Source: Candidatus Heimdallarchaeota archaeon B3_Heim
GTDB lineage: Archaea; Asgardarchaeota; Heimdallarchaeia; Hodarchaeales; Hodarchaeaceae
Direction of reading: 5' to 3'
Assembly (NCBI GenBank): GCA_003144275.1
Contig: NJBF01000098.1
Location: forward strand, 1 to 6,028
DNA: 6,028 bases
The translations under genes were made by a program, and so were the position numbers. The notes beneath the pieces are model-generated. The model was not told the origin of the DNA, made no database searches, and saw nothing but the letters and a program-made list of their open reading frames with translations. Within the stretch, counting starts at the first letter, position 1. Each line of letters begins with the position of its first letter. Shown piece by piece: positions 3 to 4,976 of the stretch.

Positions 3-236
3 TCACTGATGAGAGCCCTCACTACTGACAAAGAAAGTCGTGTGCGATGGAGGGCAGCATTTGCACTTGGAAGTATCGGAAGTGAGAAGGCGGTTGAGCC
101 ACTCAAGCGGGCTTTAAAAGACGAGAACAAATCGTTTTTGGGAAAAGTGAACGACAGAGCATTCTCATCCCTTGAGGAAATCAGCAAGAGAATAAAGAAG
201 AGAATTGCTTTAGACGCGACGCAAGATTCCTTCTGA
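3..236 (+). CDS. HEAT-repeat (PBS lyase HEAT-like) protein, C-terminal part; 5' end lies outside the window
   Basis: The frame is open from position 3 (SLMRAL...), so the ATG at 9 is probably internal. The translation SLMRALTTDKESRVRWRAAFALGSIGSEKAVEPLKRALKDE matches the HEAT/PBS-lyase repeat pattern L..AL..D....VR..AA.ALG.IG...AVEPL..AL.DE. Stop is TGA at 234-236. Confidence 0.85.
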   Translation, partial: SLMRALTTDKESRVRWRAAFALGSIGSEKAVEPLKRALKDENKSFLGKVNDRAFSSLEEISKRIKKRIALDATQDSF

Positions 237-1348: not shown

Positions 1349-1690
1349 CTAAAAATGAATAATAAAGGCAATTTCGAAAATTATTGTTTTTTTTGGATTT
1401 TTGGGTCTAGATTTTTGGGATTTGAGATTAGAAAAATCTCTATAATCCGGCTGGCAAAAGCTATGTGATCTCTTATTTTTTGAATTAACTTCATTATCAA
1501 TCATCTTATCCCGGTAATAGCTTAGCGCGTACCTTCCTTTTACTTTATGTCTACTTTTTGATTTCGGCCTTCTGTCTTTGTTCAGGAAACTCTGGTAGGT
1601 ATTAGCTCTTCTATTGATTTCTTTCCTTGGGAGAACATGGGTAGTTACGAATACGCTAATTGTCTTAGTTTGTTTGTGAAGACAGTCCAT
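1349..1690 (-). CDS. Doubtful hypothetical ORF (113 aa)
   Basis: Open frame from the ORF track with no recognisable motif and a K/R/S/N-rich, low-complexity composition. AGGAG sits only 1 nt from the ATG, too close for a normal ribosome-binding site. Confidence 0.2.
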   Translation of the reverse strand: MDCLHKQTKTISVFVTTHVLPRKEINRRANTYQSFLNKDRRPKSKSRHKVKGRYALSYYRDKMIDNEVNSKNKRSHSFCQPDYRDFSNLKSQKSRPKNPKKTIIFEIAFIIHF

Positions 1691-1792
1691 TCTCCTGCCG
1701 CTGCCGCAAACAACAGGAGAGGGATTAGAGGACTTTCCGCAAAGGACAGATTAAACTCTGTTCTGAAGAAATCAAAAAATCAAGATTAGCAA

Positions 1793-1827
1793 AAACCAAA
1801 ATGGCCCAGCGTTGGGCTTTTTGGTTT
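1793..1827. terminator. Long hairpin, possible bidirectional intrinsic terminator
   Basis: The inner stem is GCCCA-gcgt-TGGGC (1804-1817) and the outer stem is AAACCAAAA/TTTTGGTTT (1793-1801/1819-1827). T-runs follow the GC stem on both strands: TTTTT at 1818-1822 on +, and TTTTGGTTTTT on -. Confidence 0.5.
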
Positions 1828-1886
1828 GTGAAGTTGTTTAGAAGGAAAGGGAGAAAATTTGCCCTTTTGGGAAAAGTCATCCCCGT

Positions 1887-1916
1887 TGGCTGCGTCTATG
1901 CGACGACGTTAGAACC
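1887..1916 (-). other. Possible att-site remnant resembling a tRNA 3' end and a recombinase C-terminal tail
   Basis: The minus strand reads GGTTCTAACGTCGTCGCATAGACGCAGCCA, which begins like a T-arm (GGTTCGAA) and ends in ...GCAG-CCA, but is too long for a real tRNA 3' end. The plus strand encodes WLRLCDDVRT, similar to the W-x4-D-x-VRT tails I recall from recombinases that overlap tRNA att sites. No tRNA body or recombinase is present. Confidence 0.3.
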
Positions 1917-2077
1917 GGTTCAATGACAATATAGTTTTACCTTGCTCTATCGCCCATTATTTTCTCTTTAATTACCAACAAAACTGGCATTCGGACATGG
2001 CGAACTGAATTTTTTTGCGGAGCTACAAAACCAAAGGGTGGGGGTGGGGTCAGACTTCCTACGCATACAAACTCTTA

Positions 2078-2965
2078 CTACCAAGAAAGTTTGTTAATTC
2101 GTTGCCCTAGTGCTTCAGAGATCTCGAGGAATTTTTCTAGTGAACCGTTAAACATACCAACTTGTAGGGGAGGCCATCTTCCTCCTTTTCTCTTAGCTTC
2201 TTCTACTACCTGACTAAATGGGCTTTCCCCCATACCACGACCATGTTTCCATCCAAATCTACCTATTGGTCCCCAATTACGTCCTGTTGCATCCGCATAA
2301 ACAAGTGCGGAATAAACTTCAAAGTCATCAAACAGTCGTTCATAACTCTTACCAACAAAAAGAAGATCTTCAAGAACAGGTTCCAAGATTTGAAAGAGAT
2401 GTTCACTGCGCGGAACATATTTCTTCTCCTGACCAGGTATCCACTTAAATGCATCATTTATATCAGAAAGGTTTGAAGCAACCGTGACAACGATAGGAAG
2501 ATGTTCTTTTTCTACTGAAGATTTTTGTACAGGAGTTGTTAATATTACTTTTAATGCATCATACTTCCCAGCGGATAGCGCTGCGATTCCGGCTGAATAC
2601 ATAAGAATTTGAACTGGATACCAGTCAAAATTGAGCCAAAGAACCGTACCCGCTGACCCTTTATCTGTCTCCGCTAGACGACTGAAAACTTTCTCCAAGA
2701 GAGACAACTGTTCTTGTTCTCCCCATCTCGAGAGAAGAATGACAATCTGTTGAAGCTCTTCCACGGCCCCCTCATACTTCTGTATCCGCTCCAAAAAATC
2801 TTCTTTCTGCACATTTACGCCCTGGACAGGAAAGTGCTCAAGGTCGGTTGCGGTAAGAAACGCCTTTATGTGCATTGTAACATAATCATCAAGTCTGATC
2901 CTATTTTTAGGATCTGAGAGCAACTCTTTCATTTCTTCGATGACTGTTGTTTTAGGATTTGTCAT
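2078..2965 (-). CDS. Conserved hypothetical protein (295 aa); stand-alone version of a helical domain usually found C-terminal to defence effectors (caspase/peptidase C14, SIR2-like and others)
   Basis: Long ORF with normal composition, ending TAG-TAA. The motifs KELLSDPKNRIRLDD, WYPVQILMYSAGIAAL, PGQEKKYVPRSEHLF, FDDFEVYSALVYAD, WGPIGRFGWK and WPPLQVGMFNG match, from memory, that C-terminal domain. CDS confidence is high; the family assignment needs an HMM check. Confidence 0.85.
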   Translation of the reverse strand: MTNPKTTVIEEMKELLSDPKNRIRLDDYVTMHIKAFLTATDLEHFPVQGVNVQKEDFLERIQKYEGAVEELQQIVILLSRWGEQEQLSLLEKVFSRLAETDKGSAGTVLWLNFDWYPVQILMYSAGIAALSAGKYDALKVILTTPVQKSSVEKEHLPIVVTVASNLSDINDAFKWIPGQEKKYVPRSEHLFQILEPVLEDLLFVGKSYERLFDDFEVYSALVYADATGRNWGPIGRFGWKHGRGMGESPFSQVVEEAKRKGGRWPPLQVGMFNGSLEKFLEISEALGQRINKLSW

Positions 2966-2983
2966 AAAAGGGTATTGGTAGGC

Positions 2984-4147
2984 TCATAATTTTTGTGTAT
3001 ATCTTTGAATAATTTCTTGTCCTCTTTGTATTAGATCAGTATATGTTAAGACCTCGATTCCATGCAAAGAATAGTTGAGTTTTCTCAGGGCCTCTTTCCT
3101 TGTCTCATTCCATCCTTCTTTTGTACCAACGACAATAAAGGCACGTGGTTTTATTACGAATACATCCCAACCATATTCTCTCTTGATCGCCCTACTTAAT
3201 TCTAACTGTAGCCGTTCTATATCGTTAAGATAATTTACCACTTGCCCAATGGCTTTATTGGTCTCGCCACACCATCTATAAGAGCCCGGTCGAGAACTAT
3301 CTTCAATTACTACATCATTTGACGGCAACTTAATTTCAAGGATATCTAAGAAACCATTGATAGTAGGAAATAAGTAGTCTGGCATACTGCCGGATAAATT
3401 TATCTTTTGTTTCTCTATGGGTTGCTGATATTGGACTCCCAAAAGCCAATTATTTTTATAGATCCAACTTTGCCATGAATTTTTTCCTCTTGTCTCGGCG
3501 TATTGCTTAGTTGACTTGAGGCGCTCCTCAAGCTCTTTTATTCTGCTTTGGAAAAGAGCGATATTGGAGCTCTTTTGCAGTTCTTCCAGTTGCTCTATTT
3601 CAGACTTTAAGATTCTTTTCTGCTCTCTTAATCCCTTAACAGTCTCTGTTGTTTGCTGGAATAAAATTTTCTTGTTTTTGGTTTTTTTTGACAGGTCCTG
3701 CAATACTTGGAGGAAATTCTTGTCAACTTTTTTCAGCTGGCTTTCCGTAACTCTCCCCTTGTCATAATCAAATTCCTTTGGGAATCGCGAATTGAGAAAT
3801 AAATTGGCTGAATCCAAACCTGTCTCTCGATAAAAAACATAGAATTTGGCCTGCGTAACTTTTCGATAATCCTCAAAGTTGATACGGAATTCATTTTTTG
3901 TTCTTTTAGTCTCGCCATCGGAAAAAATAATCTTTGCCTTACCGTTTTTGGTTTTAATTACCTGGATTAGGTGCTTGAAGCCGCGCAGGGCCCTTCCGTT
4001 TTTGAATAAGTCCAAAAGATTTCCATCGCGGGTTTTTTGTTTGGTTAAAGATTGTTCGAGTCCTTTAGTAAGAAAAACCTCAACGCCGTTGAGTTTCCCC
4101 AGTGCCCTTGGGTTAACAACTTTAATTTTGACTAAATTATTCTTCAT
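2984..4147 (-). CDS. sduA: Shedu anti-phage nuclease SduA (DUF4263, PD-(D/E)XK) with a variable N-terminal domain and coiled coil
   Basis: The C-terminal half carries Shedu/DUF4263 hallmarks: WQSWIYKNNWLLGVQY (W225), PD257YLF, ILE271IK273LP, AIGQ302VVNY, KPRAFIVVG, and LRKLNYSLHGIEVLTYTDLIQRG. A heptad-like stretch at about residues 165-212 (LREQKRILKSEIEQLEELQ...IKELEERL) precedes the nuclease domain. Confidence 0.9.
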   Translation of the reverse strand: MKNNLVKIKVVNPRALGKLNGVEVFLTKGLEQSLTKQKTRDGNLLDLFKNGRALRGFKHLIQVIKTKNGKAKIIFSDGETKRTKNEFRINFEDYRKVTQAKFYVFYRETGLDSANLFLNSRFPKEFDYDKGRVTESQLKKVDKNFLQVLQDLSKKTKNKKILFQQTTETVKGLREQKRILKSEIEQLEELQKSSNIALFQSRIKELEERLKSTKQYAETRGKNSWQSWIYKNNWLLGVQYQQPIEKQKINLSGSMPDYLFPTINGFLDILEIKLPSNDVVIEDSSRPGSYRWCGETNKAIGQVVNYLNDIERLQLELSRAIKREYGWDVFVIKPRAFIVVGTKEGWNETRKEALRKLNYSLHGIEVLTYTDLIQRGQEIIQRYTQKL

Positions 4148-4240
4148 GTTTTGTGATTGAAAGAACTTTCAACAATCTTAATCTCCTCCGGCGTGAGACC
4201 GTAGAGTTTATAAACCAATTAGTCAGTCTGTTTCAAATTG
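4144..4240 (-). pseudogene. Degenerate 3' end of a type IIG / Eco57I-like restriction-modification gene
   Basis: The minus strand reads ...QFETD, then a frameshift, then D*LVYKLYGLTPEEIKIVESSFNHKT*. This is the characteristic 'ID.LVY.LYGLT.EEI.IVE' terminus of type IIG RM proteins. It contains an in-frame TAA at 4219-4221. Its TGA (4144-4146) overlaps the sduA ATG (4145-4147) as ATGA. Confidence 0.72.
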
Positions 4241-4288
4241 ACTAGTCTATGGCCAAGTCCTTCTTGCTCGCCTGACCTGCCCCCATTA

Positions 4289-4316
4289 ATAGTACCACTT
4301 GTTAAGTTAGAGTCAA
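4289..4316 (-). promoter_or_regulatory. Sigma70-like promoter candidate pointing into the RM remnant and sduA
   Basis: The minus strand reads TTGACT (4316-4311), a 16-nt spacer ending TGG, then TACTAT (4294-4289). This gives an extended -10 (TGn-TAnnnT) about 140 nt upstream of the sduA ATG. Confidence 0.4.
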
Positions 4317-4863
4317 CTGAACGATGGCCTCCGGAGCAGGTGGTCCATTGGAATTCGTTGACTGGAATAGCTTAATCAATTGGCTTGATACGTTTTACGG
4401 CGAATAATTGTACCGTATCTTAGATTAAATAGCAGTATAATCGAAAAATCATGATGCCGCTTGACACTCGACTATATGTTTATTCATCTGATGCAGATCG
4501 TGGAAGATGACCTCATAGCGGAAAATGAAGATGTGTGACAGGAACTGCCAGAAGCATGGAAGGAAGTAGACTAATCTCTAATTCTACGCTTTAAATGTGC
4601 AGTATGACAACCTTGGTCGTTGGGTCACATCCTCAATTAATTCCGGCATAGCTTAAATTATTAGCTTTTATGGAAGAGCACTTCAATTTCTAATATTCAG
4701 GGGCTGAACACTTCGAGTGTCCTTTAGCCATCCTTGTTAGCTATCTTCATATGGGGGTCAAAGGACTAGTTCTTCATCCGAGGCGGAATGAGGAACACAA
4801 AGTCAGAACGATTGGGCCAAAGAACGTCCCAGAAGTGTGCATTCTCAAAGACCAATTTTCATT

Positions 4864-4879
4864 CTGTTGACATCAACAG
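4864..4879. promoter_or_regulatory. Inverted repeat, possible operator
   Basis: CTGTTGA-ca-TCAACAG has 7-bp perfect arms and a 2-nt centre, and contains TTGACA (4867-4872). No well-spaced -10 box is present. Confidence 0.2.
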
Positions 4880-4976
4880 GATTTAATTTAATGTCTGAGA
4901 GGTAAAAAGAGAGTATCTCGAGGGTTTGTAGGAGATAGCGAAACTCACACGCATATTCGCTAGTGAAAGTATTTTT

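Follow-up and report, generated by a model that had tools for sequence, protein, structure and literature searches.

Shedu is usually treated as a self-contained nuclease, which senses infection via its own N-terminal domain. It is described as a single gene, and its neighbourhoods are those of R-M, BREX and mobile elements. Structures of type 1 Shedu have been solved for SduA from B. cereus and E. coli (PDB codes 8ti8/8ti9, 8ps4/8ps5; bioRxiv 10.1101/2023.08.10.552793; 10.1101/2023.08.10.552762, Loeff et al.). A precedent for Shedu as a two-gene system is KELShedu (KELA + KELB), where a DUF4263 nuclease needs a second, operon-coupled protein; KELA is a 12.6-kDa dsDNA-binding protein, which is encoded upstream with a gap of 3 bp (PMC12577705). 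In type IV Thoeris, a caspase possesses a C-terminal regulatory domain proposed to control the effector, and an adjacent TIR gene is required. PADLOC's PDC-S65, for which a full-text literature search found no paper, combines SIR2 and a C-terminal helical domain in a single gene.

The window, i.e. the whole analysed stretch of 6,028 nucleotides assigned to Candidatus Heimdallarchaeota archaeon B3_Heim (contig NJBF01000098.1), contains an sduA gene and, next to it, a second gene, ORF2:

2984-4147, minus strand: sduA (ORF1), by prediction a complete Shedu nuclease of 387 aa (4147 to 2987) plus TGA stop (2984-2986)
2966-2983, minus strand: intergenic spacer of 18 nt between this TGA and the ORF2 ATG, six sense codons (AYQYPF) in the SduA frame
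2078-2965, minus strand: ORF2, a free-standing, all-helical module of 295 aa (ATG at 2965, TAG at 2078-2080), which corresponds to the C-terminal half of PADLOC PDC-S65
2061-4343, minus strand: two-gene cassette with about 97% nucleotide identity to other metagenome contigs, the flanks being unrelated outside

The ATGs of the two genes are separated by 1182 nt (394 codons), which places both genes in a common frame, and hypothetical read-through of the single UGA would yield a product of 689 residues and roughly 79 kDa. All these positions and lengths, which a preceding sequence-only reading had listed, were re-derived. That reading had proposed either a nonsense-split or read-through fusion, or a two-gene system with the second protein acting in trans. 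No obvious Shine-Dalgarno sequence was found in the 18-nt spacer.

ORF1 was identified as SduA by Pfam SduA_C (PF14082, E 2e-16, residues 223-373) and by PADLOC SduA (PDLC00390, E 2.4e-70). Its AF2 model (pLDDT 84.6) consists of an α/β N-terminal domain (approximately residues 1-121), a long helix (156-211) and the PD-(D/E)xK DUF4263 nuclease (225-384 in the model, approximately 223-384 as annotated), i.e. the N-terminal domain, linker and nuclease of the type 1 architecture. The catalytic residues D257, E271 and K273 are invariant in an alignment of 60 homologues. In sequence and in fold, the protein matches the solved Shedu chains best: the PDB entries closest to the model are E. coli and B. 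cereus SduA, and the SduA profile extends to the C-terminal ends of 8ps4 and 8ti8. The protein resembles described Shedu with respect to the C-terminal DUF4263 nuclease, the intact D/E/K residues, the helical linker behind an N-terminal domain, and the length class; the lengths of 575 homologues cluster at 385-400 aa, and the orthologues L087 and L094-L096 (81-88% identity) end at the same terminal residue. Judged from its sequence, gene 1 encodes a type-1 Shedu nuclease that is complete and has an intact catalytic site.

What distinguishes this locus from described Shedu is the specific second gene at a distance of 18 nt, which recurs across SduA clades. An SduA_C gene is located directly upstream of an ORF2 homologue in nine lineages (L004/L090, L021, L087, L091, L094, L095, L096, L125 and the lineage of the window). 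These belong to at least four deeply diverged SduA clades with only 24-36% SduA identity between them; in all nine, the distance between the coupled genes is -4 to +18 nt, some of them overlapping as ATGA. The difference from KELShedu, as far as its description allows comparison, is that the partner is encoded downstream, is a helical protein of 295 aa and is also used by non-Shedu effectors. A KELA-like upstream gene is absent, as the 830 nt upstream of sduA contain no ORF of at least 50 aa.

In addition, the two genes have common borders. The nucleotide identity of about 97% to other contigs starts 196 nt upstream of the SduA ATG and stops 17 nt past the ORF2 stop, where the downstream flank of L086 departs; L175 and L176 align to minus-strand positions 1686-3442. 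The alternative flanks of the cassette were not found in this genome. In this lineage, sduA and ORF2 move as one 2.3-kb cassette. Conserved two-gene pairs, for which the sequence-only reading had suggested a search, do exist, and we regard a conserved pair expressed without read-through as very probable. Of that reading's two-gene option, the pair itself has been confirmed as conserved (nine lineages) and co-mobile (common cassette borders); the action of ORF2 in trans is a matter of interpretation.

ORF2 matched no Pfam or NCBIfam family. It aligns with the C-terminal halves of the PADLOC profiles PDLC05061 (E 2.5e-48, positions 306-588 of 592) and PDLC05060 (E 1.5e-37, positions 215-503 of 503), that is, with the C-terminal approximately 290 aa of PDC-S65. 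The full PDC-S65 profile is covered by a SIR2 protein of a Bradyrhizobium plasmid; in contrast, ORF2 has no N-terminal SIR2 domain, so that it is not the single polypeptide that defines this system, and the enzyme next to it, a Shedu nuclease, has a gene of its own. Most of the 170 ORF2 homologues have about 295 residues, and the ATG of ORF2 is at the position of that of stand-alone homologues. Y64, W81, Y123 and E216 are among its invariant residues. The AF2 model is all-helical (pLDDT 92.4, pTM 0.92). A solved relative was not found by Foldseek (best E 0.08), VIA-align (best Z 7.3) or a sequence profile (best E 0.69); the fold-search matches reflect generic helical-repeat similarity only. 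Structure and profile searches recognised no catalytic fold in the module itself. A search of phage genomes gave zero matches, an Atlas feature search returned nothing usable, and a literature search for a C-terminal domain common to caspase and SIR2 proteins found nothing specific.

The module family comprises 2897 representative clusters at E 0.001 or better. Among the N-termini fused to the module, caspase was found in 65 of 68 cases, and the best 120 longer homologues listed are all caspase proteins (120/120). These fusions of about 580 aa, whose modules share 40-61% identity, are the commonest form of the family, and in a tree the stand-alone forms are nested inside the caspase-fused diversity. 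They carry the same module as the locus studied here, but their effector is a protease in cis, whereas here it is a nuclease in trans. Fusions with SIR2, TIR and Schlafen were found by structure and tblastn, and kinase and ParA-like fusions occur among the listed representatives. In every fusion among the 150 listed representatives (of 2897) the module is C-terminal. The statement of the sequence-only reading that the 295-aa domain is located C-terminally to effectors such as caspase and SIR2 could therefore be verified and extended to TIR, kinase and others; its further statement that ORF2 starts at the domain boundary agrees with the PADLOC profile positions and with the fusion structures.

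Stand-alone copies follow, at gaps of -11 to +40 nt, genes for TIR, Hypoth_Ymh, DUF3644, GmrSD, S24, a methylase or a split caspase. HEPN-type genes figure among these in-trans neighbours. The order of effector and module in the gene pairs is identical to the domain order in the fusions. Altogether, the module family accompanies at least ten effector types in cis or in trans; the module goes with an abortive-infection-type effector, either fused or next door. As exceptions, some ORF2 homologues, among them L005 and L006 at 80% identity, have no tightly coupled neighbour. The caspase-fused forms have no conserved partner, as 56 different families occur in 90 neighbours; consequently, the module needs no third partner. 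Compared by description, the caspase fusions are similar to type IV Thoeris, as both combine a caspase with a C-terminal domain proposed to control the effector. Assigning them to this system was rejected, because only one of the 90 neighbours is a TIR gene and the remainder is spread over the 56 families. Likewise, the window contains no TIR or caspase gene, which separates it from type IV Thoeris.

The explanation that accounts best for these results, and which we favour with moderate confidence, is a separate pair having ORF2 as its control or sensor subunit. The two genes would form an operon in which ORF2, 18 nt past the sduA stop, is translated on its own. The module would be the sensing or control part of defence proteins; in the split form it would act in trans on the SduA oligomer, and a phage cue would cause it either to release or to enforce autoinhibition of the nuclease. 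Control or sensing for Shedu in trans is the most likely role of ORF2; that it actually regulates SduA in this manner has, in our view, an even chance of being correct. A complex prediction with the full-length chains of SduA and ORF2 gave a score of 0.00, which is evidence neither way. ORF2 diverges faster than SduA (72% versus 88% identity to L087), and compared to L086 it has 10 non-synonymous changes and one synonymous change, plus an exchange of the stop from TAG to TGA. This is as expected of a sensing surface; the 10:1 count is too small for proving positive selection and may be explained by relaxed constraint.

A broader view, which is possible though clearly less probable, is that the module is a portable, free-standing trigger for unrelated effectors, namely Shedu, TIR, HEPN-type RNases, GmrSD and split caspase. 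These would be switched on or held off generically, e.g. by cue-induced oligomerisation. A point against control of SduA in trans is that ORF2 relatives at 66-72% identity are paired with the unrelated genes DUF3644, GmrSD and TIR; a specific contact surface between two proteins would hardly fit this, except where activation works generically. A BLASTP comparison between the classes of upstream partners (SduA, TIR, Ymh, DUF3644, S24, GmrSD), a test of low sensitivity, detected no common docking domain.

The same diversity of partners might alternatively indicate that the genes are independent neighbours: ORF2 would be self-sufficient or unrelated, would have been dropped behind defence genes by island shuffling, and would not interact with SduA. 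SduA relatives of the same length class and 54-71% identity are located elsewhere, in type I R-M or DUF499 loci, and lack the module, which indicates that this SduA type can exist without it. Orphan copies of ORF2 exist, its close relatives adjoin unrelated genes, and Shedu is described as a single-gene system. We nevertheless consider this reading rather unlikely. It does not account for the tight coupling, ATGA overlaps included, in nine lineages and at least four deeply diverged clades, or for cassette borders common to both genes. Moreover, thousands of proteins carry the module, in which no catalytic fold can be recognised, in covalent linkage to an enzyme that serves as effector, and effector and module follow each other in the same order as genes and as domains.

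Improbable, too, is that the module is the receptor of a small-molecule immune signal, as proposed for the caspase tail of type IV Thoeris, and not a direct phage sensor. TIR genes adjoin stand-alone ORF2 homologues in five loci and many polar residues are invariant among the homologues, both in line with a receptor. Against it, TIR genes are almost missing beside the caspase-fused forms (1/90), the window has neither a TIR nor a cyclase gene, and fusions of TIR or SIR2 with the module would join a signal maker or an NADase to its own receptor.

The first option of the sequence-only reading, a fusion, did not hold. Programmed read-through, or recoding, of the UGA would produce an SduA of 689 residues with a C-terminal module. 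In its favour, the two genes share a frame, no stop codon is leakier than UGA, and four other metagenome contigs (L086, L175-L177; about 97% identical) have the same TGA and, with one substitution, the same 18-nt spacer; due to this recurrence, the TGA is not a sequencing error. However, neither stop nor frame nor context is conserved in orthologues. The orthologous SduAs L087 and L094-L096 end with TAA or TAG, and their spacers of 10-17 nt, unrelated in sequence to the one here, place ORF2 in frame +1 or +2; in more distant pairs the spacer is 9 or 13 nt long or replaced by an ATGA overlap. Only two of the nine distinct lineages have both genes in frame. Given a chance expectation of three, the shared frame is no more than chance; the sequence-only reading had itself named a one-in-three prior. 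A reassignment of TGA in this genome was ruled out: 451 of 1573 long open frames end in TGA, translating TGA as a sense codon brings no greater gain than doing so with TAG or TAA, and aRF1 is present, so that TGA is an ordinary stop. Scans of the window with Rfam and for repeats detected no element at the junction or the cassette borders, and no structured RNA element was found. ORF2 has its own ATG. A full-length fusion of SduA or DUF4263 with the module, for which a search had been suggested, was found neither among the best 120 longer homologues nor among the 150 listed representatives of 2897; module proteins of odd length in this listing are kinase, ParA-like or without assignment. For these reasons, and because SduA ends normally, read-through is not supported and is very improbable; that the UGA lies in frame is coincidental in this lineage, and no hidden fusion stands behind it.

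Even less credible is a recent nonsense mutation that split an ancestral SduA-module fusion gene: the shared frame and the C-terminal extension beyond the nuclease, longer than 100 residues, that is reported for about 12% of unclassified Shedu proteins (Gu et al., bioRxiv 10.1101/2023.08.10.552793) would fit, but SduA ends at the usual C-terminus of its family, all relatives found, including basal ones, have the split arrangement, and no fused relative is among those listed.

For the in-frame UGA of this locus, a tempting recoding reading has been corrected. In some Shedu lineages, a second gene that recurs and is co-mobile suggests that control has an additional level. The module belongs to a large family without a Pfam entry or a solved structure, and the split Shedu form offers a clean experimental handle on it, with genes that are both small and a nuclease read-out that is well understood; it could reveal what the module senses and how effectors are controlled. 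If the module is indeed a portable trigger, Shedu at this locus would not be a single-gene system that senses for itself but the output side of a shared sensor cassette, and the module would be a widespread and so far undescribed device by which prokaryotic immunity receives its input.

Two open reading frames lie in one frame on the minus strand, separated by a single UGA. For this layout, the sequence-only reading was confirmed with respect to the coordinates, the ATG-to-ATG distance of 1182 nt and the 689 residues that result if the UGA is suppressed. The window, which is the entire 6-kb contig, contains the following features.

Features of the window
3-236, plus strand: HEAT/PBS-lyase-type repeat protein, truncated by the contig end to a C-terminal fragment
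2061-4343, minus strand: shared two-gene cassette (limits of identity with other contigs)
4147 to 2987, minus strand: ORF1 (sduA), 387 aa, with stop TGA at 2984-2986
Between this TGA and the ATG of ORF2, minus strand: spacer of six sense codons (AYQYPF)
2965 (ATG) to 2078-2080 (stop TAG), minus strand: ORF2, 295 aa
5586-6026, minus strand: partial TPR-repeat gene of three tandem units, running off the contig end

The three units of the TPR-repeat gene are near-identical; each comprises 141 nt (47 aa), and their DNA identity is 91-95%. The approximately 830 nt upstream of sduA (4148-4976) contain no ORF of at least 50 aa, and the approximately 1.1 kb 3' of ORF2 (978-2077) are AT-rich (32-38% GC), with short ORFs only, none of which matches a family. 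The sduA-ORF2 cassette apparently sits within non-coding DNA.

ORF1 is a complete Shedu nuclease, whose C-terminus lacks no part. It matches Pfam SduA_C (residues 223-373, E 2e-16) and the PADLOC SduA profile (E 2.4e-70) up to profile position 334 of 339; the lengths of the homologues listed, out of 575, are tightly grouped at 385-400 aa. Residues D257, E271 and K273 are invariant in an alignment of 60 sequences. In the AF2 model, a long helix lies between the alpha/beta N-terminal domain and the nuclease; the best fold matches of this model are the solved Shedu chains 8ps4 and 8ti8, with which the SduA profile aligns to their final residues.

The in-frame UGA had been taken to indicate either a fusion, by read-through or split by a nonsense mutation, or a two-gene system. 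The TGA itself is real, because four contigs of other samples, about 97% identical to the window pair, share both stop and spacer. The fusion is nevertheless rejected, given the full-length SduA, the differing stops, spacers and frames of orthologous pairs, and the normal use of TGA as a stop. The SduA orthologues of four other loci (L087, L094, L095 and L096; 81-88% identity) end at the same residue, but their stop is TAA or TAG, their spacers of 10-17 nt are unrelated in sequence and their frame is +1 or +2; more distant pairs have spacers of 9 or 13 nt or ATGA overlaps. In-frame pairs occur in two of nine lineages, three being expected by chance. In the genome, TGA ends 451 of 1573 long open frames, and reading it as sense brings no more gain than doing so for TAG or TAA. 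Moreover, the N-terminus of ORF2 lines up with those of stand-alone homologues, and no SduA-module fusion was seen among the relatives listed (120 longer homologues and 150 representatives). What stood was the two-gene alternative, as the pair recurs in nine lineages.

ORF2 stands alone as a copy of a module that normally occurs in fusion with effectors. It matched no Pfam or NCBIfam family; its PADLOC match is confined to the C-terminal half of PDC-S65, a profile fully covered by a SIR2 family protein of a Bradyrhizobium plasmid. The AF2 model is all-helical and confident (pLDDT 92.4, pTM 0.92), and no solved relative was found by fold or by sequence. A whole-library profile search gave 2897 representative clusters, and in every one of the 150 representatives listed the module is at the C-terminal end. 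The N-terminal part is a caspase in 65 of the 68 genomic fusions and in each of the best 120 longer homologues; fold and sequence place the module also behind SIR2, TIR and Schlafen-AlbA2 domains, and it is likewise C-terminal in protein kinases and one ParA-like ATPase. These proteins and the PDC-S65 match bear out the caspase and SIR2 context given in the sequence-only reading, and ORF2 indeed begins at the domain boundary. Stand-alone homologues of about 295 aa are common.

In most cases, a stand-alone module gene in the loci fetched begins -11 to +40 nt after the gene before it, and the commonest upstream gene is SduA_C. This pair was found in the lineages of the window, L004/L090, L021, L087, L091, L094, L095, L096 and L125; the paired SduAs form at least four clades with only 24-36% identity between them. 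Coupled partners besides SduA are TIR (5' of the module in three loci, 3' in two), Hypoth_Ymh (three loci), DUF3644, GmrSD, an N6-methylase/HSDR_N protein, a split caspase, and LexA-like S24 peptidases of 241-255 aa directly upstream (L008, L011, L097, L099). A further such peptidase lies near an SduA pair (L004:2596-3219); these peptidases may be either effectors or regulators. In a split caspase locus (L145:2669-6878), a 234-aa caspase gene and a 304-aa module gene lie 109 nt apart, and a 768-aa Piwi-domain (Argonaute-like) gene comes next. Judged by topology alone, the module tree places the stand-alone forms mostly in a single clade inside the caspase-fused diversity; within it, partner types are intermixed and SduA occupies several positions, some of them basal.

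In the window lineage, identity with other contigs begins 196 nt 5' of the SduA ATG and ends 17 nt past the ORF2 stop. The flanks beyond are unrelated between contigs, those of the other contigs being absent from the window's genome; consequently, both genes share the borders of one cassette. On one contig of another sample (L175:2-1150), a Schlafen AlbA_2 protein gene lies upstream of the 97%-identical cassette, a flank differing from that of the window. sduA and ORF2 are a recurring, co-mobile pair of separate intact genes.

Several findings make an obligate partnership less likely. SduA homologues of the same architecture (54-71% identity) occur without ORF2 in type I R-M or DUF499/DUF1156 loci; settings of this kind have been described for Shedu at large (Gu et al., bioRxiv 10.1101/2023.08.10.552793). 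Some ORF2 homologues, including those of L005 and L006 (80% identity), have no tightly coupled neighbour, and relatives at 66-72% identity are paired with unrelated enzymes.

The assignment of the contig to its archaeal host is uncertain. The genome is archaeal, because it encodes aRF1 but neither of the bacterial factors RF1 and RF2. The GC content of the window is 40% versus 36% for the genome, its tetranucleotide correlation (0.904) is the fourth-lowest of 103 contigs in the bin, and tblastn of four flanking ORFs found no paralogues in the rest of the genome. Among 300 genomes sampled from the phylum, only one other was found to contain the module, and 20 genomes of the same genus gave no copy; that other copy (L178, G175:C358:809-1681) lies inside a 597-codon open frame and is presumably a fused form. 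Among the matches listed, the closest relatives of both SduA and ORF2 belong to metagenome bins of bacteria. Both a recent horizontal transfer and mis-binning are possible.

Apart from the copies without a tightly coupled neighbour, the module goes with an enzyme of the abortive-infection type, either in cis or as the next gene, and the order effector-then-module is the domain order of the fusions. No conserved third partner was found among the examined neighbours of fused caspase forms. The likeliest role of the module is sensing or control; ORF2 would then work in trans and either activate or restrain the SduA oligomer, the nuclease of which is autoinhibited (Gu et al., bioRxiv 10.1101/2023.08.10.552793). 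ORF2 is the faster diverging gene: L087 shares 72% identity with the window in ORF2 versus 88% in SduA. Between ORF2 (2078-2965) and L086:190-1077 there are 10 non-synonymous changes and one synonymous change, and the stop differs (TAG-to-TGA). The adjacent 189 nt (SduA 3' end and spacer) differ by one base. In this small sample, the fast divergence and the 10:1 ratio hint at a sensing surface.

PDC-S65, whose C-terminal half corresponds to ORF2, is a computational candidate only, and a literature search found no paper naming it. The caspase of type IV Thoeris has an uncharacterised C-terminal domain, the proposed binder of a TIR-made signal; the caspase-module fusions found here, unlike type IV Thoeris, nearly always lack a TIR neighbour. 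Shedu has been described as a single-gene system (Gu et al., bioRxiv 10.1101/2023.08.10.552793). In KELShedu, the sole two-component Shedu published, a 12.6-kDa DNA-binding partner is encoded upstream (PMC12577705), whereas the 295-aa partner of the window pair lies downstream of the nuclease. In agreement with the initial impression of an undescribed architecture, the literature searched yielded no account of Shedu paired with this module. Shedu itself is known; new is a Shedu with a recurrent accessory module.
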